NCBI GenBank assembly: GCA_049322255.1
Contig: JBMORE010000148.1
Span: 1-64,000 of the forward strand
Length of the DNA stretch: 64,000 nt
Source: Myxococcota bacterium
GTDB lineage: Bacteria; Myxococcota; Myxococcia; Myxococcales; Myxococcaceae
Reading direction: 5' to 3'
This document shows positions 9,561 through 57,195 of the stretch, in pieces. The translations under genes and the position numbers were made by a program. The notes under the pieces are model-generated. The model ran no database searches and was not told the origin of the DNA. It was given only the letters and a program-made list of their open reading frames with translations. The stretch's first letter is position 1. Every line of letters begins with the position of its first letter.

Positions 9561-9642
9561 CCCTCTCCCCGTGGGAGAGGGAAGAGGTGAGGGAACGGGA
9601 GCTCTCGGTCCCTCACCCTTGCCCTCTCCCATAGGGAGAGGG
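9561..9642. repeat. Inverted pair of 33-bp BoxC/PIT-like elements (copies 2 and 3)
   Basis: 9561-9593 ccctctccc-cgt-gggagaggg-aag-aggtgaggg and 9610-9642 ccctcaccc-ttg-ccctctccc-ata-gggagaggg. Confidence 0.88.
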
Positions 9643-10674: not shown

Positions 10675-12168
10675 ATGCCGTCACGCCCAGGAAGCTTGGC
10701 CGTGTTGGCGGCGCTCGCCCTGCTCGGCGCCTCGTGCAGCTCCTCCGAGCCCAACCCGCCCCAGCGCAAGCCGGAGCTCTGCGACAACGGTCGAGACGAC
10801 AACGGCGACGGCAAGACCGACTGCGCCGACCCCGACTGCTTCAACCACCCCAGCTGTCTGGCGAAGAACGAGGACTGCCTAAACGGCGTCGACGACAACG
10901 GCGACGGGCTGACCGACTGCGCCGACCCTGCGTGCCTGGCGGCGCCCCGGTGTGTCCCTGGCCAGGAGGTTTGCACCGGCGGCGTCGACGAGGACGATGA
11001 CGGCCAGGTCGACTGCGCCGACCCCGACTGTGTCGCCGACCCGGCATGTGCCATCGCCGAGAACTGCAGCGACGGAGTGGACAACGACAGCGACACCCGC
11101 GCCGACTGCCTGGACTCCGACTGCGCCGCCGCTCCCAACTGCGTCAACAATTCCGAGGCGGGCAAATGCAACGACGGGCTGGACAACGACAACGACCAGC
11201 TCACCGACTGCCAAGACCCCGACTGCACCGGGGCCTCTTGCGGCGCGGGCTGCGAGTGCGCAGGAGGAACGAAGAAGGAAATCAACTGCTCCGACGGCAT
11301 CAACAACGATGGCGATGGTCAGACCGACTGCGCCGACTCCGATTGCGTGGGCGCCGGCACCGAGCTTTGCAATGACGGAGCCGACAACACCTGCGACCGG
11401 GCGATCGACTGCGGCGACAGCAAGTGCGCGGCCAGCCCGCTGTGCCAAAACCAAACGGACGGCAAGCCGTGCACCTCCAACTCCCAGTGCGCCGGCGGCC
11501 GTTGCTTGACCGAGGCGGCCTCCGGAGCGCCCAACGGCGTTTGCTCCAACTCGGTCAGCTGCAACGTCACCGCGCAGACCGGCTGCAACGGCGGAATATG
11601 CGTCGAGTCGGGGGCGTTCGACGTCTGCCGGGCGCGCTGCACCGCCAACGGGCTCATGGCGACAGGCCGGTGCCGCCAGGGGTACGCCTGCTTCGATGCC
11701 GACACCAACACCGGAAACGACAACAACCACTGCCTACCCTTGTGCGCCTCCGACGCCGACTGTTCCGGGAGCGGCGCTTCTTACGGTTGCAACCCCTGGA
11801 GCAAGCTCTGCGAGAGCAAAGACAAGGGCCTGGGCAAGTACGGAGCGGCCTGCACTTCGGACAGCCAGTGCGAGTCGGGCCGCTGCGGCCTCTCGTTTCC
11901 GGGCGGCATCTGCTACGGGCTGTGCACCGGGAGCGCGAAGTCCTGCGGGGGCGACGGAGTTTGCTACTTCTACGCGAGCTACGGAGACAACATCGGTGAG
12001 TGCGACGATGGCTGCACGGTTTCCGGCCAGTGCCGCGGAGCTCCCTACACCTGCCAGGACTTCGGCCAGGGAAGCATCTGCTACTGCCGCCTCCTCAACG
12101 ACCCCTGCACCTTGGACAGCCAGTGCTGCTCGGGGGACTGTGACTTCTTCTTCGGTTTGTGCAACTGA
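10675..12168 (+). CDS. Cys-rich repeat lipoprotein
   Basis: Lipobox-like LLGASC; seven repeats of approximately CxxGxDxxxDxxxDCxDxxC; Cys-rich C-terminal half. Confidence 0.8.
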   Translation: MPSRPGSLAVLAALALLGASCSSSEPNPPQRKPELCDNGRDDNGDGKTDCADPDCFNHPSCLAKNEDCLNGVDDNGDGLTDCADPACLAAPRCVPGQEVCTGGVDEDDDGQVDCADPDCVADPACAIAENCSDGVDNDSDTRADCLDSDCAAAPNCVNNSEAGKCNDGLDNDNDQLTDCQDPDCTGASCGAGCECAGGTKKEINCSDGINNDGDGQTDCADSDCVGAGTELCNDGADNTCDRAIDCGDSKCAASPLCQNQTDGKPCTSNSQCAGGRCLTEAASGAPNGVCSNSVSCNVTAQTGCNGGICVESGAFDVCRARCTANGLMATGRCRQGYACFDADTNTGNDNNHCLPLCASDADCSGSGASYGCNPWSKLCESKDKGLGKYGAACTSDSQCESGRCGLSFPGGICYGLCTGSAKSCGGDGVCYFYASYGDNIGECDDGCTVSGQCRGAPYTCQDFGQGSICYCRLLNDPCTLDSQCCSGDCDFFFGLCN

Positions 12169-14457: not shown

Positions 14458-14560
14458 TTTGCCAGCGTGGCAGGGGTATGCGCGTGTCAGGGCGACAGAT
14501 TGTCGTGGTGAGGAATGCCTCTTGCCCCCGGCCGCTCTCCCACAGGCGCAGCGAGGCCGG

Positions 14561-14576
14561 TGGCATCTGCATTGCT
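14561..14576 (+). promoter_or_regulatory. sigma54 (-24/-12) promoter of the gspC-like paralogue
   Basis: TGGCAT-CTGCA-TTGCT, 13 nt before ATG 14590. Confidence 0.7.
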
Positions 14577-14589
14577 CGCGGGTGCGTTC

Positions 14590-15354
14590 ATGCGCGCCAT
14601 CATTCTCACTCTCCTCACCATATTCCTCGTTCACGCCGCTCTTCTCTTCTGGGCCCAACCCGTTGCCATCAACGGCTCACGCAGGTCGACGGCGCCACGC
14701 CCTCCCCCTGTGCCCACCGCTCTCGAAGGCGAACGGCTGGCGCGCCTTTTGGGCATGCGCCTTTCATCCACGGAGCGCCCCGCTTCTGTGCCACCGCGTG
14801 CGCCCCTGTCAGCGCGCGTGCTCGGCACCCTGGTCAGCGCGGAACCGCGCTGGTCATTCGTCCTCGTGGATGATGGCGGCAAGACCCGCACCGTCGCGGT
14901 GGGCGACCAGCTGGAGGGAGCCGATGTCCTCTCCATCGAGCGGCGGCGCGTGTCGGTCCTGCGTGACGGCCGCGAGGAGTGGCTCGAGCTGGGTGCCCCC
15001 GCGGGCGCCGGCACCTCGCTTCCGGCCCTCGGCGAAAACCGCTTCACCCTTTTGCGCACCACGGTGGAGCAGGCCTTGGACGAGCTGCCCCACCATGGGG
15101 CGCAGGTGATGCTCGTTCCGGCGTTCGAGCAGGGGAAGGCCGTGGGCATCAAGCTCTTCGGTTTGCGTGCAGGGTCGATCTGGGAACGCCTCGGCCTGCG
15201 AAATGGCGACGTTCTTCGCCAGGTGAATGGAGTCGAGCTCTCCAATCCTCGGCGGGCCCTCGACCTTTACGCGCAGGCCGGCACGCTGCGCGAGGTCACC
15301 CTCGAGGTCCTACGCGAGGGTCGGATCAACGTCCTCACCTACCTCATCGAGTAA
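14590..15354 (+). CDS. GspC-like protein (HR plus PDZ), paralogue of gspC
   Basis: N-terminal TM, VLGTLV HR segment, PDZ-like LVPAFEQGKAVGIKLF...GLRNGDVLRQVNG; visibly similar to 18638..19561. Confidence 0.8.
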   Translation: MRAIILTLLTIFLVHAALLFWAQPVAINGSRRSTAPRPPPVPTALEGERLARLLGMRLSSTERPASVPPRAPLSARVLGTLVSAEPRWSFVLVDDGGKTRTVAVGDQLEGADVLSIERRRVSVLRDGREEWLELGAPAGAGTSLPALGENRFTLLRTTVEQALDELPHHGAQVMLVPAFEQGKAVGIKLFGLRAGSIWERLGLRNGDVLRQVNGVELSNPRRALDLYAQAGTLREVTLEVLREGRINVLTYLIE

Positions 15355-16375: not shown

Positions 16376-18253
16376 CTACGGCAGCGTCAGCACTCCGGCC
16401 GATTGCGGCGTCCCCGTGCCAGGCTGAGAGCTCGAGCCGGGGTTGGCTGCGTCGACGAAGCTGGTGGCCCGAATGCGAATGAAGTACCGGGTGTTCGCAG
16501 CGAGGCCGGTCAGCTGGAAGGTGGTGGTGTCCGCCGGGACGGTGGTCACCTGGGTCACCGTGCCCCCCGTCGCCGCGGTGGAGCGCTCGATGCGAAAGCC
16601 GGTTTCGTTGGCCGAGTTGTCGGTCCACGAGAGGTCCATCGACGTCTGGGTCACGTTGGTCGCGGTGACGTTGGTGGGCGCAGCGGGCGGCGCAGGGAAG
16701 GTCACCGTCAGCGTCGGTGTGGCGGCCGAGGTTCCCCCGTTGTTCCTGGCGCACACCTTATACGAGTAGGTGTTGGCGGCGTTCCGCTCGTTGCGGTTGG
16801 TGGCTGTCGTACCCGCGCCGACGTTGCCGGTCGCGGTGGCCCCGAACGCGGCGCCGTTCAGCGCTTCATAGAAATCGAAGTTCGTCTCGTTGTTGGAGGC
16901 GTCGGTCCAAGTCAGCCGAATCACGTTCGCGGTGGCCTGGTTCTGAATGACGAAGTTGAAGTTGGTGGGCGCAGCGGGCGGCAGCTGCCTGGTGGCTGCG
17001 CTGTCAACAGCGGTCGGGTTCGAGGGACCCGCCGAGTTGTAGGCGACGACCCGATAGAAGTAGGTGGTCGAGGGGTTCAGCCCGGTGTCTTGGTAAGTCG
17101 ACACATTGGCGCCGAGCTGAGCGACCTCGGCGAACGGGCCGTTGGTATTGGTCGCCCGCTCGATGCGAAAGCCATCTTCGTTGTTCGAGGCATCGGTCCA
17201 CGCGAGGTTGAGCTGGGTGGCGCCCACCGGAGCAGCGGTCGGAGGACAGGTCGACGCGCCCGCGGGGTTGGCGGGAGTGGTGACATTGAGCCCACCCGGG
17301 TCTCCCGGCGGGGACACGGTGATGTTGGTGGTGCCGCATGCTTGCGGTGACTTCGGTGAGAGGTTTCCCACCAAGTCGAACGCCTCGAGCTCGAAGCAGT
17401 ACTCGGTACCCGAAGCGAGGTTCGTTTCGGTGTGGCTCAAGGTCGCCGCGTCGACCGTCTTGATGAGCACACCGCGCAGGTACACGTGGTAGCCGTCGAT
17501 GCCCGCCACGTCATCGGTCGCCGCATCCCAGGCGACCACCAGCGAGGACGAGCCCTGGGGAGTCACCCGCACATTGCCTGGAGTGCTCGGGGGCACCGAA
17601 TCGTCCGCCACCAGGGTGGTGCCGCTGGCGACTTCCGAGTCGGGCGAATCGCCGATCTTGTTGAAGGCCCGGACTTTGTAGAAGTAGGTGGTGGTCCTGA
17701 CCAGCCCGGTGTCGACCAACTCGGTGGCGTTGGCTCCCACCTGCCCCGCCTCGGTCCACGGCCCGTCTGCGGCCGGTGCACGGTCGACCTTGAAACCGGT
17801 TTCGCTCTTCGAGCTGTCGCTCCAAGTCACTCGCATGGCGACGTCGGACACCGGCTTGACGACGACGTTGGTGGGAGCCGCGGGCGGGGTGGTGGCTCCG
17901 TCGACGGTCACCTCGAGCACCTTCGAAGTTGCCCGGGTTCCGGTCGCGAACACCGCGTTGACCTTGTACCAATAGGTGAGCCCCTGCAGCGCCGTGTTGT
18001 CGGTGAAGCGGGTGCTGTTGGTCGAAGCGGTGGCCAGCTCTTCGAAACCTTCGGTCGCCGAGACGGTGCTCCGCTCGATGAGGAAGCGCACCTCGTTGCT
18101 GGCGTTGTCCTTCCAGCTGATGGTGACCGACGTTTCGGTCATCTCGACCACCGCGAGCTGAGTGGGAACTCCGCCGGCTCCCTCCGGCGTGCCGCAGGCC
18201 GCGAGGAGGAGCAAGGGCAACAACAACCGAGGCCGAGCCAATGGGGACTTCAT
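16376..18253 (-). CDS. Fibronectin type III repeat lipoprotein
   Basis: ATG at 18253, lipobox LLAAC, about six FN3 repeats (PxxPTN...WxDxSxNExGFxIER). Confidence 0.85.
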   Translation of the reverse strand: MKSPLARPRLLLPLLLLAACGTPEGAGGVPTQLAVVEMTETSVTISWKDNASNEVRFLIERSTVSATEGFEELATASTNSTRFTDNTALQGLTYWYKVNAVFATGTRATSKVLEVTVDGATTPPAAPTNVVVKPVSDVAMRVTWSDSSKSETGFKVDRAPAADGPWTEAGQVGANATELVDTGLVRTTTYFYKVRAFNKIGDSPDSEVASGTTLVADDSVPPSTPGNVRVTPQGSSSLVVAWDAATDDVAGIDGYHVYLRGVLIKTVDAATLSHTETNLASGTEYCFELEAFDLVGNLSPKSPQACGTTNITVSPPGDPGGLNVTTPANPAGASTCPPTAAPVGATQLNLAWTDASNNEDGFRIERATNTNGPFAEVAQLGANVSTYQDTGLNPSTTYFYRVVAYNSAGPSNPTAVDSAATRQLPPAAPTNFNFVIQNQATANVIRLTWTDASNNETNFDFYEALNGAAFGATATGNVGAGTTATNRNERNAANTYSYKVCARNNGGTSAATPTLTVTFPAPPAAPTNVTATNVTQTSMDLSWTDNSANETGFRIERSTAATGGTVTQVTTVPADTTTFQLTGLAANTRYFIRIRATSFVDAANPGSSSQPGTGTPQSAGVLTLP

Positions 18254-18597
18254 GGAGGTGACCTCCCGGAGGATGAGGGCAACGATTAGAGGGCAAGAGG
18301 CGGGCCGACGAAAGGGCTGTGCATCGCCATTGAAAAGCCCGTGTTCTAGAACGTTTAGCGAAAGCTTTGCCTCGAGGCCTGTGCACACGGGTGGGCAGTG
18401 GCGCAAAAGCGCCGTGCACGCCTTGCGAGGCGTCGATGGCGGCTGGACGGGTGACACCGCGTCAATCCACCTGGAAGCAGTCTGACATTTTGTCCCACGC
18501 CGAATCCGCGGCCGCTCTACCAGCAGTCAGGGCAGCGCTTTTCGGAATTAATCCAGGCACTTGGGTGTCGAGCAGACGGCGTCCACGAGCCCTCCCA

Positions 18598-19572: not shown

Positions 19573-22137
19573 ATGACCACTCCTCGAGATGGATTGACGT
19601 CGTACCCCCTCTCCCCCTGGGAGAGGGTTGGGGTGAGGGGCGCGATCATCGCACTCTTCATGCTGGGCGCGCTCCCGGCGTTGGCGCAACGACCGGTGCG
19701 TGAGCGACAGATCGTGCCCACACCTCCCGGTGCGCCTTCCCCGGCTCCCGGACAGCCCGCGGCTCCCCCGCAACCCACCAGCCCCGTCGACGCCACTCCG
19801 CGCAAGACACCATCGTGCGAGGAGGTGCGGCGCAAGGCCCGCTTCTCCATCTACTTCGACAAGGTGGAGCTGGAAAAGCTGGTGCAGACCGTCGCCGACG
19901 CCACCTGCAAGACCTTCATCCTCCCCGAGAACGTGCGGGGAAAAATCTCGATCATCGGCCCGGAGAACGGGAAGGTCGAGGTCAACGCCGACCAGTTCTA
20001 CGCGGCGTTCCTCTCGGCCCTCGACGCCAACAACCTCGCGGTGTACCCGCACGGGCGCTTCCTCAAGATCGTCGACAAGCAGCGGGCCAAGCAGTACCCC
20101 ATCCCCACCGTTCTCGAGGCCGACGAACCGGTGACCACCAACGAGCAGATGGTCACCCGGCTGTTCAAGGTGAAGTACGTGGAGATCGAGGCGCTGCGCG
20201 GCGTCTTGCAGCAGCTGGTCACTCCTTCCGGCGACACCATTCCCTTCCAACCCGACACCATCATCGTCAACGACCTGGGGTCGAACATGGCCCGGCTGGC
20301 GCGGATCATCGACCAGCTCGACTCGCGCGCGTCCTCCGACGAGGTGCGGGTGGTGCAGATCCAGTTCGCCAATGCGCAGGAGATCGCCGACAAAATTCAG
20401 AAGCTCTTCGAGAGCCGGGCGCAACGTCCAGGACAGCGTCCGGGCGCCGCGGCGCCTCCTCCACCGGTGGGAGGCGCCATCTCAGGGGCTCCTCCGGCCG
20501 GTCAGCCGGGGGGTGCGGCAGCCGAGAGCGGAGGGCCGGCCACGCTGTCGCAGCTCATTCCCGACGAGCGGACCAACAAGCTCATCATCATCGCCAGCCC
20601 GGCGGCGTTCGACCGCATCCTCGCCCTGATCAAGGAGATCGACATTCCCATCTCCGGCGAGGGGCGCATCAACGTCTATTACCTGGAGAACGCCAACGCC
20701 GAGGAGGTTGCGGGCACGCTGCAATCGCTCGCCCAGGGCACCGCCAACCGCCCGCGCACTCCCACTCCGCCGACACCTACGCCCGGCGCCATCAAGGGCA
20801 CGGTCACTGCCGCCGAGCTCTTCGCGGGCGAGGTGAAGATTTCCGCCGACAAGGGCACCAACGCCCTGGTGATCGTCGCCAGCCAGAGCGACTACCGGAA
20901 CCTGGTGCGGGTGATCGAGAAGCTCGACATTCCCCGCCGGCAGGTGTTCGTCGAGGCGGTCATCATGGAGGTCAACCTCGACCGCAACTCGGAGTTCGGG
21001 TTGAACCTCCACAGCGGCTACTCGCTGCGCACCGACCAGGGCGCGGTCCCGGGGGTGTTGGCCACCAAGTACACCAACCAGGGGCTGCCCCCCTCTTTCT
21101 CGCTGTTGAGCCTGGCCAACTTCGGCGGCTTTCTCGCGGGGCTGCAGGGCCCGGTCATCCCCGAGCTGGCGCAGCTGGGCATCGACATTCCCGCGTTCGG
21201 GGTGGTGTTGCACGCGCTGCAGCAGAGCTCGGACGTGAACGTGCTCTCGACGCCGCACATCCTCACCAGCGACAACGAGGAGGCGGAGATCACCGTGGGC
21301 CAGAACGTGCCCTTCCAGGCGGGCTTCTCCCCCACTCAGCTGGGCGGCCTGTCCTCCACCATCCCGGGTGCCAACGCGCTGACCCCCTCCCTCGCCGCCG
21401 GCCTGGGCGGGCTGGGGAGCCTCTTCGCCCCCATCACCCGGCAGAACGTCGAGCTCAAGCTGACGGTGAAGCCGCAGATCAACGAGAGCGACTTCATTCG
21501 CCTGGTGATTACCGAGCAGACCGAGGAGATCGCCTCCTCCGACCCGGTGCTCGGCCCCACCACCTCGAAGCGATCGGCGAAGACCACCGTGGTGGCCAAG
21601 GACCAGGAGACGGTGGTCCTGGGCGGCATCATGCAAGACCGCACCATCGAGTCGGTGGCCAAGGTGCCGCTGCTCGGCGACATCCCCGTGGTGGGTCACC
21701 TCTTCCGCGAGCAGAGCCGCAAGAAGGTGAAGACCAACCTCCTGCTCTTCCTCACGCCCTACATCATCAAAGACAAGAGCGACTTCCGCAGCATCTTCGA
21801 ACGCAAGATGAAGGAGCGGCAGCAGTTCATCGAGCAGTTTTACGGCCAGGTGCCGGGCTACGACGTGGCGATCGACTTTGCGCGCAAGAAGGGGCCGCTG
21901 GCGGCAATGAGCGCCGCGCTCTCCAAGGAGCTGCAGAAGGTGGAACACGGCGGGCCGGGCGTGCCGGGCGAGAAGGTCATCACCCCCGGCGAGCCGGCGG
22001 CACGGCCGAGAACCGAGGTGCCGCCGGGGGAAGAGCCGCCTCCCGTGGAGGGAGGCCCTGAAGTCGCCCCGCCGCCGGAGGCCCCTTCCCCCGAGCGCCT
22101 CGAGGTCCAACCCGGGGGCGAGCCGGAGATTCGATGA
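19573..22137 (+). CDS. gspD: Type II secretion secretin GspD (start at ATG 19573 or GTG 19633)
   Basis: N domains (DERTNKLII), QVFVEAVIMEV, VLSTPHILT, KVPLLGDIPVVGHLFR, LLLFLTPYII. Confidence 0.95.
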   Translation: MTTPRDGLTSYPLSPWERVGVRGAIIALFMLGALPALAQRPVRERQIVPTPPGAPSPAPGQPAAPPQPTSPVDATPRKTPSCEEVRRKARFSIYFDKVELEKLVQTVADATCKTFILPENVRGKISIIGPENGKVEVNADQFYAAFLSALDANNLAVYPHGRFLKIVDKQRAKQYPIPTVLEADEPVTTNEQMVTRLFKVKYVEIEALRGVLQQLVTPSGDTIPFQPDTIIVNDLGSNMARLARIIDQLDSRASSDEVRVVQIQFANAQEIADKIQKLFESRAQRPGQRPGAAAPPPPVGGAISGAPPAGQPGGAAAESGGPATLSQLIPDERTNKLIIIASPAAFDRILALIKEIDIPISGEGRINVYYLENANAEEVAGTLQSLAQGTANRPRTPTPPTPTPGAIKGTVTAAELFAGEVKISADKGTNALVIVASQSDYRNLVRVIEKLDIPRRQVFVEAVIMEVNLDRNSEFGLNLHSGYSLRTDQGAVPGVLATKYTNQGLPPSFSLLSLANFGGFLAGLQGPVIPELAQLGIDIPAFGVVLHALQQSSDVNVLSTPHILTSDNEEAEITVGQNVPFQAGFSPTQLGGLSSTIPGANALTPSLAAGLGGLGSLFAPITRQNVELKLTVKPQINESDFIRLVITEQTEEIASSDPVLGPTTSKRSAKTTVVAKDQETVVLGGIMQDRTIESVAKVPLLGDIPVVGHLFREQSRKKVKTNLLLFLTPYIIKDKSDFRSIFERKMKERQQFIEQFYGQVPGYDVAIDFARKKGPLAAMSAALSKELQKVEHGGPGVPGEKVITPGEPAARPRTEVPPGEEPPPVEGGPEVAPPPEAPSPERLEVQPGGEPEIR
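19607..19639. repeat. 33-bp BoxC/PIT-like element, copy 4, at the gspD 5' end
   Basis: ccctctccc-cct-gggagaggg-ttg-gggtgaggg; reads PLSPWERVGVRG in the GspD frame. Confidence 0.9.
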
Positions 22138-23921
22138 GCCAGGAGCTGGACGCGCCCATGGAGACGGCCGCATCTGAGCGCACCGAAATGGTGGCGCACG
22201 GACCGGCCTATCTCTTCGGCCGCCCGCTGGGAGAGATCCTCAAGGTTTCGGCTCAGCTCTCCCAGGAGAAGCTCGACGAAGCGCTCGCCCTCCAGGCGGA
22301 GAAGGGCGGGCGGCTGGGCGAGGTGTTGGTGGGCATGAAGGTGGTTTCCGAAGAACAGGTGGCCCAGGCGCTGGCCGCGCAGCTCGACCTGCCTTTTTTG
22401 GCGCGCATTTTCTCCGACGAGATCGACGGCGAGCTGGTGAAGCGGGTGCCGATCAATTTCGCCAAGTCGGCGCGGCTCTTGCCCTTGCAGCTCGAGGGCG
22501 AGGCGGTGGCGCTGGCGGTGGCCGACCCCTTGGACACCGCGGTGCTCGACCACGCCCGCATGCTTTTGCAGCGCAACGTCAGCCCCCGGCTCGCGCTGGC
22601 CTCGACGATCGTCGACGCGATCAACTCGGTCTACGACCGGGCGGTGAACGAGGCCGAACAGCTCGTCGATCAGATGGAGGCGCAAGACCTCGACGAGCTC
22701 GCTCACGAGCTGGAAGAGCCACAAGACCTGCTCGACACCGACGACGAGGCGCCGATCATTCGCCTCGTCAACTCGCTGCTCTTCCGCGCCGCCAAGGAGC
22801 AAGCGAGCGACATTCACATCGAGCCGATGGAGCGTGAGCTCATCGTGCGCTTCCGCATCGACGGCGTCCTGCAAGAGATCATCAAGCCGCCCAAGCGCTA
22901 CCAGAACTCGATCGTCGCCCGCGTGAAGATCATGGCGTCGCTCAACATCGCCGAGAAGCGGCTGCCGCAAGACGGGCGCATTCGCATCAAGCTGGCGGGG
23001 CGCGACATCGACATTCGCGTGTCGGTGATTCCGACCACCAACGGCGAGCGCATCGTCATGCGGTTGCTCGACAAGAGCGCCACCCTGCTCGACCTGGCGG
23101 AGATCGGCATGAGCGCGCACACGCTGGCGCAGGTCGACGGCATCATCCGCCGCTCGCACGGCATCGTCCTGGTCACCGGCCCCACCGGCAGCGGCAAGAC
23201 CACCACCCTTTACGGAGCGCTCTCGCGCATCAACACCCCGGACTTGAACATCCTCACCGTCGAGGACCCGGTCGAGTACCAGATCAAGGGCATCTCGCAG
23301 ATGGCGATTTCGCCCAAGATCGGCCTGTCCTTCGCCGCCGGGCTGCGCAGCTTTCTCCGCCAGGACCCCGACGTCATCATGGTGGGCGAGATTCGCGACA
23401 AGGAGACGGCGGAGATCGCCATTCAGGCCTCGCTCACCGGCCACCTGGTCTTCTCCACCGTCCACACCAATGACTCCGCCGGCGCGGTCACCCGCCTGGT
23501 GGACATGGGCGTCGAGCCCTTCCTGGTCGCCAGCTCGCTGACCGCCATCTTGGCGCAGCGTCTGGTGCGCCGCGTGTGCCCCGACTGCCGGCAGGCCTAC
23601 GAGCCCACGGACGAAGAGCTGCGCGAGATCGGCCTGTCGCGGCAGAAGCTGGCCGCGCGGGGTGTTTCCACCGTTTTCCGTGCCACCGGTTGCCTCGCCT
23701 GCAGCAAGAACGGCTACCGCGGCCGCACCGGCATCTACGAGTTTCTGCTGGTGGACGACGACGTGCGCCAGCTGGTGCTCAAGAACGTGGACTCGTCGAG
23801 CATCAAGAAGAAGGCGATGGAGAAGGGCATGTTGTCGCTGCTCGACGACGGGGCGCGCAAAGTGCTGGAGGGCGAAACCACCATCGCCGAAGTCCTGAGC
23901 GTCACCCAGGAGGACCTGTAA
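22134..23921 (+). CDS. gspE: Type II secretion ATPase GspE
   Basis: ASDIHIEP, RLPQDGR, Walker A GPTGSGKTT, LRQDPD, tetracysteine motif; MshEN-like N-terminus. Confidence 0.95.
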   Translation: MSQELDAPMETAASERTEMVAHGPAYLFGRPLGEILKVSAQLSQEKLDEALALQAEKGGRLGEVLVGMKVVSEEQVAQALAAQLDLPFLARIFSDEIDGELVKRVPINFAKSARLLPLQLEGEAVALAVADPLDTAVLDHARMLLQRNVSPRLALASTIVDAINSVYDRAVNEAEQLVDQMEAQDLDELAHELEEPQDLLDTDDEAPIIRLVNSLLFRAAKEQASDIHIEPMERELIVRFRIDGVLQEIIKPPKRYQNSIVARVKIMASLNIAEKRLPQDGRIRIKLAGRDIDIRVSVIPTTNGERIVMRLLDKSATLLDLAEIGMSAHTLAQVDGIIRRSHGIVLVTGPTGSGKTTTLYGALSRINTPDLNILTVEDPVEYQIKGISQMAISPKIGLSFAAGLRSFLRQDPDVIMVGEIRDKETAEIAIQASLTGHLVFSTVHTNDSAGAVTRLVDMGVEPFLVASSLTAILAQRLVRRVCPDCRQAYEPTDEELREIGLSRQKLAARGVSTVFRATGCLACSKNGYRGRTGIYEFLLVDDDVRQLVLKNVDSSSIKKKAMEKGMLSLLDDGARKVLEGETTIAEVLSVTQEDL

Positions 23922-23922
23922 T

Positions 23923-25173
23923 CTGCCCGTCTTCGAATACAGAGGGCTCTCCGAAGCCGGCAAGACGGTCAACGGCCTGAAGGAGGCCGATTCGGCCAAG
24001 ACCCTGCGCGCCCTCTTGCGCAAGGAAGGCGTGTTCCTCACCGACGTCCTCGGGCAGGCGGAAGGAGCGCGCGCCAACGGCAAGGCCGGCGCCGTCGTGG
24101 CTTCGGGGCAAATCGACCTACGCAAGCTGGCGCGCGGGCGCATCACCTCGGACGACATCGCCATCATGACCCGGCAGCTGGCCACCCTGCTCGGGGCCGG
24201 AGTGACGCTGGTCGAGTCACTCACCGCGCTGGTCGATCAGGTGGAGAAGGAGCGCCTCAAGCGCGTGCTCTCCGACGTGAAGCAGCGGGTGAACGAGGGC
24301 AGCTCTCTGGGCGACGCGCTGGCCCAGCACCAAAAGATTTTCGGTTCGCTGTACGTGAACATGATTCGCGCTGGCGAGCACTCGGGCGCGCTCGACGCGG
24401 TGCTCTTGCGACTTGCCGAGTTCACCGAAGGGCAGGCGCGGCTGCAGCAGAAGATCATCTCCACCCTCATCTACCCGGCGATCATGTCGGTGATCGGCGG
24501 CGGCATTCTCGTGCTCCTCATGACCCTGGTGGTGCCGCGGGTCACCAAAATCTTCGAGGACATGAGGGCCACGCTGCCGTGGACGACGCGGTTGCTCATC
24601 TGGTCATCCAACACCCTTCAGACCTGGTGGTTCGTCCTCCTGCCGATGTTCGTGGGGGGAATCGTCACCTTCTTCTATTGGAAGCGCTCGGAGGCGGGAA
24701 AGCCGGTGTGGGACCGCTTCGCCCTGAAGATGCCGGTGTTCGGCAGCCTCATTCGCATGCTCTCGGTGGCGCGCTTCTCGCGCACGTTGGCCACACTCCT
24801 TCGCAGCGGAGTGCCGCTTTTGACCGCGCTGGACATCGTCAAGAACGTCATCACCAACAGCGTGCTCGCCGGGGTGGTGGAGAAGGCGCGCGAGGCGATT
24901 CGCGAGGGCGAGAGCATCGCCAACCCGCTCAAGCGCTCGGGGGAGTTTCCTCCGCTGGTCTACCACATGGTGGCGATCGGGGAGCGCAGCGGCCAACTGG
25001 AAGACATGCTGGTCAACGTCGCCGACAGCTACGAGTCGCAGGTGAACGTGCGAGTGGGCGCGCTCACCGCGCTGCTCGAGCCCTTGCTCATCGTCAGCAT
25101 GGGCGTGGTGATTGGCTTCGTCGCCCTCTCGATCATGATGCCCATCCTTCAAATCAACTCGTCCATTCGATGA
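23923..25173 (+). CDS. gspF: Type II secretion platform protein GspF (probable CTG start)
   Basis: RQLATLLGAGV, GEHSGAL and GERSGQLE motifs; in-frame N-terminus (M)PVFEYRG begins at CTG 23923 behind AGGAGG. Confidence 0.92.
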   Translation: MPVFEYRGLSEAGKTVNGLKEADSAKTLRALLRKEGVFLTDVLGQAEGARANGKAGAVVASGQIDLRKLARGRITSDDIAIMTRQLATLLGAGVTLVESLTALVDQVEKERLKRVLSDVKQRVNEGSSLGDALAQHQKIFGSLYVNMIRAGEHSGALDAVLLRLAEFTEGQARLQQKIISTLIYPAIMSVIGGGILVLLMTLVVPRVTKIFEDMRATLPWTTRLLIWSSNTLQTWWFVLLPMFVGGIVTFFYWKRSEAGKPVWDRFALKMPVFGSLIRMLSVARFSRTLATLLRSGVPLLTALDIVKNVITNSVLAGVVEKAREAIREGESIANPLKRSGEFPPLVYHMVAIGERSGQLEDMLVNVADSYESQVNVRVGALTALLEPLLIVSMGVVIGFVALSIMMPILQINSSIR

Positions 25174-25340
25174 AACCCATGAACCAGCCTTCCCCCCAGC
25201 CGCTCGATTGGTGGGTGCAGCGCGTGACGCTCTTCGCCTTGCTCGCGCTCAGCGCCGTTCTGGTCGGCATGGGTATCAAGCTCTACACGCCGCCGCGCGC
25301 TTCGCCGCCGTCGGCGATCCACTCGTCCGCCGTCCCCTAG
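25170..25340 (+). CDS. Small single-TM protein within the gsp operon
   Basis: ATGA overlap with the gspF stop; 56 aa with TM VTLFALLALSAVLVGMGI. Confidence 0.6.
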   Translation: MKPMNQPSPQPLDWWVQRVTLFALLALSAVLVGMGIKLYTPPRASPPSAIHSSAVP

Positions 25341-25349
25341 AGGTCCTCT

Positions 25350-25766
25350 ATGAACCGAAAAGCCAGACGCATTCTGCGCCGCGCCCGCCGTGGCATGACG
25401 CTCATCGAGATCATGGTGGTGATCGTCCTCCTCGCCCTTCTGATGGGGCTGGTGGGCGTCGCCCTCATCCCCAAGCTCGAGGAGGGCAAGCGCGACTCGG
25501 CCATGCTGCAGATGAAGAACTTCGAGGGCGCGCTCAAGTGCTTCTACGTGAAGAAGGGCAGCTACCCGGACACGGGCGTGGGGCTCAAGGGCCTGGTCGA
25601 CACCCAATGCATGGAGACCATCCCCCAAGACCCTTGGGGCAGCGAGTACGTCTACCTCAACGAGGGCGGCAAGCCGGTCATCGTCAGCTACGCCAAGGAC
25701 AAGGCCCCCGGCGGCGAGGGCAACGACGCCGATCTTTCCACCAAGGACGGCCCCAAGCCGCAGTAG
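25350..25766 (+). CDS. gspG: Major pseudopilin GspG
   Basis: RRG|MTLIEIMVV prepilin motif; DPWG...Y; PGGEGNDAD tail. Confidence 0.92.
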   Translation: MNRKARRILRRARRGMTLIEIMVVIVLLALLMGLVGVALIPKLEEGKRDSAMLQMKNFEGALKCFYVKKGSYPDTGVGLKGLVDTQCMETIPQDPWGSEYVYLNEGGKPVIVSYAKDKAPGGEGNDADLSTKDGPKPQ

Positions 25767-25770
25767 CCCG

Positions 25771-26571
25771 ATGAGCGCGCACGACCACAATCCCCTCTCT
25801 CCCTGGGAGAGGGTCAGGGTGAGGGGCGTCAGCCTGACGAATTCGCCCCCCTCACCCCCGCCCTCTCCCAAAGGGAGAGGGGGTCGCCGGGGCGTCACGC
25901 TCATCGAGTTGATGATTGCGCTGACCCTCATCACCGTCTTCTTCTCCGTTGCCGTCTTGAGCGTGGGCGCGCTCACCGGGACCAAGGCCAAGGCGGCCGC
26001 GGGAGAGCTGGGCGGCGTCATCCGCTCGCTCTACGACACCGCCGCGCTGAGCGGAAAAACCTGCCGCCTGGTCTTCGAGCTGCCCGGCCCCAAGGAGGAC
26101 GAGGACGTCGCGCGCTACTGGGCCGAGTGCGCCGCGGGGAACGTCACCGCGCGCAAAGACCGAGAGGACGAGCTCGAGGACGCCTCGCGTGCCAAGGAGG
26201 AGGAAGCCCGCAAGAAGGACCGCGGTGCGAGTGATGACCGCTTCCGCTCATACTCCGACGGGCCTTCTCTCCAAGAACTGCTCGCGGCGGAGAAGGACCG
26301 GGTGGAGAACGCCGCCAAGTACTCGCAGTACACCAGCCCGGAGATCGAGCCCCGCGAGCTCCCCGGAGCGGTAAAGCTCTCGGTGTGGACACGTCACCAG
26401 CGCGAGGCGGTGAGCGCAGGGACGGCCTACCTCTACTTCTTCCCCCAGGGCTTCACCGAGAAGGCCCACGTCTACGTGCGCCAGGGGGACAACGTGTGGA
26501 CGATCACCGTCTCGCCGCTCACCGGGAAGACCAAGGTGGTGGCCGAGGAGCTGGAGGTGCCCAGGTCATGA
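25771..26571 (+). CDS. gspH: Minor pseudopilin GspH-like
   Basis: RRG|VTLIELMIAL; FFPQG motif; position after gspG. Confidence 0.8.
   Translation: MSAHDHNPLSPWERVRVRGVSLTNSPPSPPPSPKGRGGRRGVTLIELMIALTLITVFFSVAVLSVGALTGTKAKAAAGELGGVIRSLYDTAALSGKTCRLVFELPGPKEDEDVARYWAECAAGNVTARKDREDELEDASRAKEEEARKKDRGASDDRFRSYSDGPSLQELLAAEKDRVENAAKYSQYTSPEIEPRELPGAVKLSVWTRHQREAVSAGTAYLYFFPQGFTEKAHVYVRQGDNVWTITVSPLTGKTKVVAEELEVPRS
25793..25881. repeat. Inverted pair of 33-bp BoxC/PIT-like elements (copies 5 and 6) in the GspH leader
   Basis: 25793-25825 ccctctctc-cct-gggagaggg-tca-gggtgaggg; 25849-25881 ccctcaccc-ccg-ccctctccc-aaa-gggagaggg. Confidence 0.9.
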
Positions 26572-27452
26572 GGCGCGGCTTTTCGCTCCTCGAGGTGCTG
26601 GTGGCGATGGCGATTCTCGCCGTCTCCCTCATGGCCATTTTCAGCCTCAACTCCGGAGCGGTGGCGAACCACGCGTACACCAAGAAGTTGACGGTGGCGA
26701 CGCTGCTCGCGCGGGGGAAGATGATCGACTTGGAGCAGGAGCTCTACGACAAGGGCTTCTCCAACGACGACGACGAGGAGTCGGGCGACTTTTCCGACGA
26801 GGGCTGGCCCAGCTTCAAATGGCGGGCGAAAATCATCGCCCCCAAGACCAACGGGCTCGACCCGCAGAAGCTGATCGGCGCCCTCTTCAACCTCCCCCTC
26901 GGAGGAGAGGGCGACGAGTCGGGGCTGGGCGGACTGGCTGCGCTTTTCGGCGGCGGCGGCAACACCAAAAATCCCGGCGCGATCGATCCTCTGGCCGCGC
27001 TCGGCCCCGCCGCCGCGCTGGCCCAGGGCCAGTTCACCCAGATGATCGACCAGATCACCAAGGCGGTGCGGGAGGTGCACCTCACCGTCAGCTGGAAGGA
27101 AGGCAAGCTGGTGGAAAGCATCGACCTGGTGACCCACGTCGTCTCCCTGGGGCCTGGCAGCGACCGCAACGGCCTGAGCGGCACCGGGGCAACGTCGGCC
27201 CCAGGCACCCCGAACTGGGTTCGTCAGGACAATGGCGCACCGGTGGCCAACCCGGTGCCCGGTCCGGGCGGCACCATGGTCGATCCCACCGACAACATGC
27301 CGGTGATTCCGCTCGCACAGTGGATGGCGCAGCAGAGCGCGCGCAACATCCCTGGTGCGATCAATCCGCGACTGCCCATCGGCGGTGCCGCGGGCGGGCT
27401 CCTCCCCGGAGGCCTGGGAACCCCGCGGCCCATCAAGGTGCGTCCTCAATGA
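26568..27452 (+). CDS. gspI: Minor pseudopilin GspI-like
   Basis: MRRG|FSLLEVLVAMAIL; ATGA overlap with gspH. Confidence 0.82.
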   Translation: MRRGFSLLEVLVAMAILAVSLMAIFSLNSGAVANHAYTKKLTVATLLARGKMIDLEQELYDKGFSNDDDEESGDFSDEGWPSFKWRAKIIAPKTNGLDPQKLIGALFNLPLGGEGDESGLGGLAALFGGGGNTKNPGAIDPLAALGPAAALAQGQFTQMIDQITKAVREVHLTVSWKEGKLVESIDLVTHVVSLGPGSDRNGLSGTGATSAPGTPNWVRQDNGAPVANPVPGPGGTMVDPTDNMPVIPLAQWMAQQSARNIPGAINPRLPIGGAAGGLLPGGLGTPRPIKVRPQ

Positions 27453-28126
27453 GAAGGCCCAAACACAACGGCTTCACCCTGATGGAGGTGATGATCGCCA
27501 TCGCCATCACCTCGATGATGGGCGGGCTCATCGCGGTGGCGTTCTCGACGGGCATGAAGGCCAAGGAAGTGGTCGAGGCCGACGCCGAGCACTATCGCAT
27601 GGTGCGCACGGCGATGAACCGCATGGTGCGCGAGATTGGCGCCGCGTATGTGAGCGACCGCTACGACCCCAAGCGCTACCGCGACGCCTTCGACCGCCCC
27701 ACCAACTTCATCGGGGAGAAGGAGCGGCTGCTCTTCACCTCGCTCGCCCACCAGCGCCTGTACGCCGACGCCAAGGAGTCCGACCAGATGGTGGTGGAGT
27801 ACTCGGTGAAGTCGTCTCCCGACCCGAACGTGAAGAACCGCGACGACCTGGTGCGCCGCGAGAACGCCAACGTGGGCGAACGCATGGACCGTGGGGGGAC
27901 CGAGGAGGTTCTCTTCGAGGGAATCAAAAAGATCGAATTCGCCTACTGGGATTCAGAGCGCAAGGAGTGGGACGACGAGTGGGACACCCGGCGCGCCGAG
28001 CGTACGAAGCTTCTGCCCACCCGGGTACGCATCACCCTCGTCGCTCTCGACGAGAACAAGAAGGAGCGGCGCTACACCACCCAGACCCGCATCGTGCTCA
28101 ACACCGAGCTGCCGAGGTTTCAATGA
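27449..28126 (+). CDS. gspJ: Minor pseudopilin GspJ
   Basis: HNG|FTLMEVMIAI; C-terminal LPTRVRITL; ATGA overlap with gspI. Confidence 0.85.
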   Translation: MRRPKHNGFTLMEVMIAIAITSMMGGLIAVAFSTGMKAKEVVEADAEHYRMVRTAMNRMVREIGAAYVSDRYDPKRYRDAFDRPTNFIGEKERLLFTSLAHQRLYADAKESDQMVVEYSVKSSPDPNVKNRDDLVRRENANVGERMDRGGTEEVLFEGIKKIEFAYWDSERKEWDDEWDTRRAERTKLLPTRVRITLVALDENKKERRYTTQTRIVLNTELPRFQ

Positions 28127-29433
28127 GGACGGCTATTCGCCCCTCACCCCAACCCTCTCCCAGCGGGAGAGGGGGACGTGGAGAACGCGGAGTGGCGTTG
28201 ATCATGGTGGTGATTGCCATCGCCTTGCTCACCGTGGTGGGCACCGAGCTCGCCTACAACTCCCGGGTCGACATGCAGCTGGCCGCCAACCAGCGCGACG
28301 AGGTGCGCGCCTACTTCCTGGCCAAGAGCGGCATCGGGCTGGCGCGGCTGATGCTCCGCTTTCAGCGGCAGCTGGACAACATTCAGATTCCCACCAACCT
28401 GCTCAGCCTTCTGGGCGTCCCGCCCCAGGTTCCCCAGCCCTCCTCGCTGTCCATTCAGCTGTGGCGCATGGCGAAGATCGACTGCCACATGCTGCAAGGG
28501 CTGGTCGACGACGAGCCTCCCCGCGGAGGCATCGGGCCTGCATCCTCGAGCTCGAAGTTCGAGTTCGACGATGAGTTCCCCGAGCTGGGCAAGGCGATGG
28601 CGACGCGGAAGTTCGGCGGCTTCTCGGGGTGTTTCGATGTCCAGATTTTCGACGAGGAGGAGAAGATCAACTTGAACAAGCTGGACGCTCCCCAGCTCAC
28701 CAGCCAGGTGCTCTTGGCACAAACGCTCTCCACCTTCGGCGACAAGAAGTACGAGTTCCTCTTCGAGAAGGAGGACTCCAACAAGGTGAAGGTCGCCCCT
28801 GCCGACCTGGTCGTTTCGATGCGCGATTGGGTGGACGAGGACGAGGTGCAATCGCAACTCAACCTGACCGGCCAGGGCGACCCGTTCGCCAAAGGTTTCT
28901 CTGACGAGGACCACGACTACGACCGCTACGACCCGCGCTACGAGGCGAAGAACGCGCGCTTCGACAGCCTCGACGAGCTGTACCGGGTGCATGGCGTGAA
29001 CGACCGCTTCATGGCTGCCTTTCGCGACAAGCTCACCGTGTACCCGGACATCAACTCGCGCCTGAACATCAACACCGATGATCCGGTGCTGCTCACCTTG
29101 GCCATTCGCTCGGTGGCCGACCCCTCGCGCCCCGACGTGCGGCTGCAAGACCCGATCTTCATCGACTCGCTCATCCAGAAAATCCGCCTGGCGAAGATGT
29201 TCGCCATCTTCGGCATGTCGGTGGTGGACTTCGTGAACATCGTCGAGTCCGCGGGGGTGGCGGTGAACCCCTCGATCAAGAGCAACCCCGCCAACCAGCG
29301 GTACGTGGGCGACAAGACCACCACCTTCCAGCTCAAGAGCGTGGGGACCGCCGGCGCGGTGGAGAAGACGCTCACCGCGGTGGTGCGCACCAACGAGGGG
29401 CTGGGCACCCTCGTCTACTGGAGAGAGGAATAG
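28123..29433 (+). CDS. gspK: Minor pseudopilin GspK
   Basis: ERG|VALIMVVI (lacks Glu5, typical of GspK); KINLN, DWVDED, FDSLDEL, LNINT. Confidence 0.88.
   Translation: MRTAIRPSPQPSPSGRGGRGERGVALIMVVIAIALLTVVGTELAYNSRVDMQLAANQRDEVRAYFLAKSGIGLARLMLRFQRQLDNIQIPTNLLSLLGVPPQVPQPSSLSIQLWRMAKIDCHMLQGLVDDEPPRGGIGPASSSSKFEFDDEFPELGKAMATRKFGGFSGCFDVQIFDEEEKINLNKLDAPQLTSQVLLAQTLSTFGDKKYEFLFEKEDSNKVKVAPADLVVSMRDWVDEDEVQSQLNLTGQGDPFAKGFSDEDHDYDRYDPRYEAKNARFDSLDELYRVHGVNDRFMAAFRDKLTVYPDINSRLNINTDDPVLLTLAIRSVADPSRPDVRLQDPIFIDSLIQKIRLAKMFAIFGMSVVDFVNIVESAGVAVNPSIKSNPANQRYVGDKTTTFQLKSVGTAGAVEKTLTAVVRTNEGLGTLVYWREE
28141..28173. repeat. 33-bp BoxC/PIT-like element, copy 7, in the GspK leader
   Basis: ccctcaccc-caa-ccctctccc-agc-gggagaggg; reads PSPQPSPSGRG. 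Confidence 0.9.

Positions 29434-52855: not shown

Positions 52856-57195
<4,340 letters not shown>

Follow-up and report, generated by a model that had tools for sequence, protein, structure and literature searches.

Why does one short palindrome lie in frame in the leader peptides of three proteins encoded by a single secretion operon? The question is raised by a 64,000-nucleotide stretch of Myxococcota DNA (contig JBMORE010000148.1, positions 1 to 64,000; hereafter the window), in which the gspC-N cluster for type II secretion (T2SS) houses copies of a 33-bp hairpin unit that are read in frame within the signal peptide of GspD and the prepilin leaders of GspH and GspK. Here, we identify these inserts as BoxC/TMECO repeats. 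From sequence comparisons, we consider it probable that a DUF559 nuclease gene has aided the spread of BoxC and that BoxC copies are retained where extra codons would harm little, predicted-cleaved leaders included. The repeat is no T2SS device; the T2SS sites are a local view of a genome-wide invasion, and the effect on T2SS biology is probably neutral. The repeat itself is known, and its likely nuclease partner is a more valuable part of the finding than the T2SS angle.

The repeat in gspD, gspH and gspK

The unit reads CCCTCACCC-N3-CCCTCTCCC-N3-GGGAGAGGG, and its opposite strand is the TMECO pattern, which the available text of Holder et al. (2015; PMC4666352) equates with the earlier BoxC and PIT and describes as a C-rich 9-nt stem, a loop of 3-6 nt and two G-rich 9-nt blocks 3 nt apart. 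Three of the four gsp copies fit this pattern exactly and the fourth with one mismatch, and 171 exact copies are present genome-wide. Since the 1990s, BoxC has counted as an orphan repeat. An Rfam search with the repeat returned sub-threshold matches to miRNA hairpins only.

The four in-frame copies listed in a preliminary description of this DNA, one each in GspD and GspK and two in GspH, are all where it placed them, and it was also right that the mature parts of the gsp proteins are free of the repeat (0 among the 8 BoxC copies of the window). Its element of 33 bp, however, is the conserved core only: on one side the unit runs on into a weaker flank of ~10 nt, and the one insert that was resolved at the DNA level, in a GspH leader of the related genus g16, measures 51 bp. 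Likewise, a length divisible by three is true of the core but not of the inverted pair in gspH, which spans 89 bp with its two arms read in different frames, nor of such pairs in general; the 41 pairs of the genome are 74-95 bp long and leave remainders of 0, 1 and 2 in 15, 8 and 18 cases, with no bias to multiples of three.

Sec signal peptides are removed by signal peptidase. In gspD (19573-22137, plus strand; a secretin by Pfam), an exact TMECO match at 19607-19639 (minus strand) occupies the n-region of the signal peptide; it is purine-first on the coding strand and translates as LSPWERVGVRG. The gspD ATG (19573) lies 11 nt past the gspC stop, a spacing identical in the closest orthologue (G182), and the signal peptide of 38 aa (by eye, to 19686) is 20 codons longer than the 18 aa found there.

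The two prepilin leaders carry the other copies. In gspH (25771-26571, plus strand; N-methyl pilin by Pfam), a motif scan located an inverted pair at 25793-25881, composed of a minus-strand copy (25793-25825) and a plus-strand copy (25849-25881), in a leader of 41 aa counted from the ATG or 25 aa from a GTG at 25819. In gspK (28123-29433, plus strand; T2SSK by Pfam), whose ATG overlaps the gspJ stop, the copy at 28141-28173 (plus strand; motif scan) fills codons 7-17 of the 23-aa leader that runs to G|VALIM, and translates as PSPQPSPSGRG. Both proteins have the layout of class III signal peptides, a hydrophilic leader ending in Gly and then a hydrophobic stretch, with G|VTLIE and an N_methyl match in GspH and G|VALIM and a PilX_N match in GspK. 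Prepilin peptidase genes are present in the genome, and prepilin leaders are variable in length according to the accessible part of PMC10191384. No in-frame ATG, GTG or TTG occurs from the second copy to G|VTLIE in gspH, or from the copy to the final leader Gly in gspK; a prepilin with a normal leader end must therefore be translated through the repeat. A GspK start at a +1 GTG (Shine-Dalgarno, SD, score -9.0) that would bypass the leader was considered and is unlikely, as the ATG overlaps the gspJ stop and orthologues keep leaders.

Are these sites old? We compared 40 orthologous T2SS loci, a few of them cut by contig ends, and found the sites of this genome empty: none of the gsp sites is conserved, the GspD element occurs in none of the 40 loci, and the orthologues lack these peptides. 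Other sites are filled. The 40 loci contain 6 hairpins, 5 of them in prepilin leaders and 0 in mature regions, and prepilin leaders of three other genera carry hairpins: G015 and G048, of one genus, in GspH (probably one event), G009 in GspH and GspK with a variant of its own, and G020 in GspG and in the N-tail of a small membrane open reading frame (ORF). In genus g16, to which G015 belongs, the gspH leader is filled in 2 of 18 loci, the filled allele being 51 bp longer in frame, and one other allele holds a 15-bp scar-like remnant (15 of the 18 leaders were aligned, and the pattern scan took in all 18). Some of the empty g16 alleles retain part of the motif, where a seed and a deletion scar are indistinguishable, which weakens their reading as sites before insertion; homology-seeded insertion was considered as the alternative to a scar. 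One g16 empty site retains the first bases of the motif, and the native GspD leader of G022 reads LSPW. Three DNA sequencing runs compared with this DNA brought up the probable source sample only and, among the matches listed, no empty allele; no RNA data set with the sequence was listed.

The bracketed DUF559 gene

What could have spread these copies? The genome (G000; 4.85 Mb, 99.6% complete) has a single full-length DUF559 gene (C47:17899-18216; E 8e-37), which carries the repeat at each end, oriented as in the inverted pairs; the right-hand copy forms the stop of a convergent gene. The protein matches PDB 3hrl, and PMC3424549 places DUF559 beside Vsr and a homing endonuclease in the PD-(D/E)XK group. 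This genome and its relatives together provide 16 full-length DUF559 loci, where, judged by eye, hairpins stand on both sides in 13 and on one side in 1-2, with 1 ambiguous; in the flanked loci each lineage has its own repeat variant.

The repeat is patchy among 40 relatives that were scanned, with the pattern in 8 (1 to 329 copies) and absent from 32, and within genus g16 its abundance follows the nuclease gene: the 13 genomes that hold 173-569 exact copies each have a close DUF559 homologue (13 of 13), and the 5 that hold 1-15 copies have none (0 of 5), two of these five having distant, unflanked homologues. The g16 genes occupy one common chromosomal locus and fall into two sequence groups, 62-66% identical, that differ in their repeat variant, a pattern that points to the exchange of cassettes at a fixed site. 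Moreover, 41 nt of the insert in the G015 GspH leader are identical to the end of that genome's own cassette. On this comparative evidence, the repeat has likely been spread by the DUF559 gene that it brackets.

Could the repeat have spread without it? Recombination or replication slippage at a triplex or hairpin, or another enzyme, might have multiplied the motif, with DUF559 a mere passenger. Several observations point this way and count against a role of the nuclease. DUF559 was not found in two repeat-rich genomes, G017 (164 copies, 99% complete) and G007 (255 copies, 86% complete), in searches of which one had no positive control. The DUF559 gene of G057 has an internal stop, the cassette ends in G000 are degenerate and have only 10-13 nt in common with the gsp copies, and the g16 genomes are kin with one common cassette locus, so that the 13/13 versus 0/5 pattern may reflect few events. 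The available text of PMC4666352 ties the motif to local instability and reports no link to mobile elements, and target-site duplication, a feature of miniature inverted-repeat transposable elements, is absent here too: 15-nt flanks of 210 single copies showed no excess of direct repeats over shuffled pairs. Against such a course stand the presence pattern in g16, the lineage-specific variants around each DUF559 gene and the insert that matches a cassette end over 41 nt, and we hold it to be unlikely. Local copying as the source was rejected, as the loops of neighbouring copies are barely more alike than those of random pairs (2.97 versus 2.74 of 6).

For a spread driven by DUF559, we suggest that cleavage by the nuclease and subsequent repair would write short cassette ends (~45-51 bp, as singles or inverted pairs) into new sites, without target duplication and sometimes in place of host codons. 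A named partner nuclease makes the spread of BoxC directly testable, also in Escherichia coli. In E. coli K-12, the 3' end of ycjD, a DUF559 gene, is overlapped by a degenerate hairpin and followed, after ~170 nt, by an exact TMECO motif (L083:2706-2740). In the open-access literature, supplements being outside the scope of the search, we found no link between BoxC and DUF559 and no report of BoxC in genes or in leaders.

Gene ends, protein interiors and leaders

With up to 3 mismatches allowed, 292 copies were counted in the genome and 0 in one triplet-shuffled version of it, which excludes chance. These comprise 210 singles and 41 inverted pairs, all pairs in one orientation. By our own gene calls (a self-trained caller with approximate starts, 5' coding ends being assigned by a rule), 43 copies are internal to genes, 46 give a stop codon, 30 form C-terminal tails, 43 lie at 5' coding ends and 130 are intergenic or upstream; 162 of the 292 thus overlap coding sequence, and the intergenic location known from E. 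coli does not hold here. Of the six frames of the unit, five have no fixed stop and the sixth gives TGA.

Is the repeat tolerated within mature proteins? Homologues were aligned for 10 internal sites in 9 proteins, leaving aside the other 33 internal copies, and at all ten sites homology continues on both sides of the repeat. The net addition amounts to 16 aa in MoaA, 15 in a BioD-like AAA_26 protein and 11 to 14 in a KdsB-like protein, whereas host residues were partly or almost wholly replaced in a WbpP-like epimerase (+1 to 2) and in MurD-like and FtsI-like proteins; Lhr, an EPSP-synthase-like protein and HypF (two sites) are further hosts. The repeat is therefore present inside mature proteins, beyond cleaved leaders, and one short repeat alters on the order of 150 proteins, cell-wall and cofactor enzymes among them. 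A MurC-like gene ends in the element in G000 (C183:20096); at the corresponding position G005 has another variant, and in G013 the repeat lies just past the stop of the MurC-like gene.

The distribution along genes is uneven. Rough copy densities per kb are 0.40 in signal n-regions, 0.39 in the last 15 codons, 0.22 in intergenic DNA, 0.13 in other N-termini and 0.013 inside genes: a strong bias to gene ends, in which signal n-regions are modestly favoured, about threefold relative to other N-termini. Indeed, the 5' in-frame sites fall in 24 exported and 15 other proteins, compared with 38 and 64 for sites that are upstream only (p 0.013, and 0.0008-0.038 over four thresholds), a leader bias that rests on our own gene caller and a hydrophobicity rule for export and is weakened thereby. 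The tolerance of cleaved leaders for insertions is thus measured, and its size is modest.

Must cleavage be invoked at all? It could be that the repeat simply lands beside stops and starts and that tight operons push it into leaders, cleavage being irrelevant. Most single copies give the upstream stop or begin within ~11 nt of one, the last codons are as densely occupied as n-regions, and exported genes are not enriched behind copies at co-oriented junctions (49 of 143, against a background of 638 of 1905). Such a junction bias does not account for the in-frame excess in exported proteins over upstream-only sites, or for the fact that all 6 hairpins of the orthologous T2SS loci sit in N-terminal tails ahead of the membrane segment, and as the whole explanation it appears quite improbable. 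The idea of the preliminary description that cleaved leaders act as a safe harbour survives in part. It gains from the empty sites, from the filled prepilin leaders of other genera and from the lean of 5' in-frame copies to exported proteins, but leaders account for only ~24 of 251 sites beside equally dense 3' ends and 43 internal copies; the general gene-junction bias that it had named as the opposing outcome is largely what the genome presents, and a modest n-region excess remains.

Retention in leaders is likely due to their normal removal. In the explanation that we prefer, five open frames and a built-in TGA would leave the gene readable after many insertions, and selection would purge most internal copies and spare 3' tails, loops and n-regions. 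The Pro/Gly/Arg peptide would preserve the hydrophilic, often basic character needed ahead of the h-region, and would then be removed by prepilin peptidase in GspH and GspK and by signal peptidase in GspD.

The arrangement recurs beyond the relatives. A pattern scan of species genomes found 16 loci in 14 records from several phyla with a hairpin within 30 nt of the prepilin Gly, 14 of them without a start codon between the two; selected for the arrangement and lacking a control, these loci attest recurrence, not enrichment. A metagenome scan returned one distant locus. In one metagenome-assembled genome of Patescibacteria (L245; JBBUEG010000004.1:5855-6705), an entire DUF559 reading frame with its flanking hairpins is joined in frame to the front of a prepilin G|FTLME site, an arrangement in which cleavage by prepilin peptidase would set the nuclease domain free in the cytoplasm.

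That the copies were adopted to set gsp translation, the purine-first orientation supplying an SD-like stretch and a hairpin-hidden GTG in gspD and gspH, is very improbable: the ancestral gspD ATG is retained at the spacing of G182, the gspK copy faces the opposite way, orthologues share none of the sites, the copy load of the operon is nothing unusual, and the accessible portion of PMC4666352 cites earlier work that gave no promoter or terminator activity of the motif. In its favour, the coding strand of the GspD copy has a purine-rich stretch followed 6 nt on by an in-frame GTG (19633), a start at which would give a signal peptide of 18 aa, as in G182; the element GTGs score -9.3 kcal/mol against -0.9 and +0.1 for the upstream ATGs (with an assumed anti-SD sequence); in a few other genes the element GTG is the only ATG or GTG start ahead of the h-region; and the gspH pair is predicted to form a long, stable RNA hairpin (-72.7 kcal/mol, z -6.8). 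The translational control device across one operon that the preliminary description had proposed is not supported, as three sites in the 13.9 kb of the T2SS operon (Poisson P 0.037) compare with at least three in 15 of 257 equal windows, and as orientation and frame differ from site to site.

Elsewhere in the window, motif scan and gene calls place a plus-strand BoxC copy between two convergent genes (1699-1731) and another at 54790-54822, whose loop is the TAG stop of a minus-strand gene (54799-57177) and which ends 8 nt before the next ATG (54781); the motif scan also gives an inverted pair at a gene junction (9561-9642). A small ORF (25170-25340) with a single hydrophobic segment follows gspF and precedes gspG; among 6 loci checked, a homologue occurs only in G020, where its N-tail holds a repeat variant. 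The gspF gene (23923-25173) has an apparent CTG start (23923), 2 bases past the gspE stop, where the seven orthologues read have ATG or GTG. Further upstream lie a second GspC-like ORF (14515-15354; resemblance by eye and a common DNA stretch), a lipoprotein-like ORF with repeated domains (16376-18457) and a protein with seven Cys/Asp-rich repeats of ~32 residues (10696-12168).

Comparison with known repeat systems

How do BoxC and DUF559 compare with known systems? As in REP/REPIN-RAYT systems, a genome here has a single putative partner gene in a stable position, together with repeats that are short, number in the hundreds and include inverted doublets. Differences are that most copies are singles (210 of 292) and that a Y1 HUH transposase of the RAYT type (PF01797) was not found in G000, in a search whose positive control matched in 6 of 14 genomes.

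With the BoxC/TMECO repeat as given in the available text of PMC4666352, an intrastrand-triplex repeat, the copies described here agree in pattern, in occurring as singles and inverted pairs and in a copy number that is patchy among relatives. There, BoxC of E. coli is always intergenic and no partner gene is named, whereas here ~55% of copies, by our gene calls, lie within or reach into coding sequence, and the repeat stands on both sides of a DUF559 gene. Rickettsia palindromic elements and the GTAG/CGTC REPs are in-frame palindromes in unrelated conserved genes (PMC10969869, PMC2229807, PMC3733652, as far as the accessible text goes), a likeness that extends to our case. The Rickettsia unit is of unrelated sequence and measures 105-150 bp, against a core of 33 bp, an insert of 51 bp and pairs of 74-95 bp here; the GTAG/CGTC REPs likewise give stop codons and sit at N-termini, and differ in their RAYT, of which none was found here. 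A bias to cleaved leaders is not described in the available parts of these three accounts.

A nuclease flanked by its own hairpin, like in-frame palindromes, is already known from other systems. Ssn GIY-YIG nucleases, which cut single-stranded DNA at their own repeat, are accompanied by hairpin repeats termed NTS/SRM (Chenal et al., 2025; PMC11893778, in the accessible text), and as there, a small single-domain nuclease gene stands between copies of its own hairpin variant, of which many more are scattered through the genome. The bracketed gene, to which this comparison refers (GIY-YIG genes elsewhere in the genome being outside the search), is here DUF559, not GIY-YIG, and DUF559 is not mentioned in the available text of that paper. 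We tentatively propose, at somewhat less than even confidence, that BoxC is the non-autonomous partner of a Vsr-like DUF559 cassette and rewrites protein ends, loops and cleaved leaders by the hundred rather than keeping to intergenic DNA. If true, a unit readable in five frames, with its own stop, an SD-like stretch and a start codon, would form with DUF559 a third nuclease-repeat pair beside RAYT-REP and Ssn-SRM.

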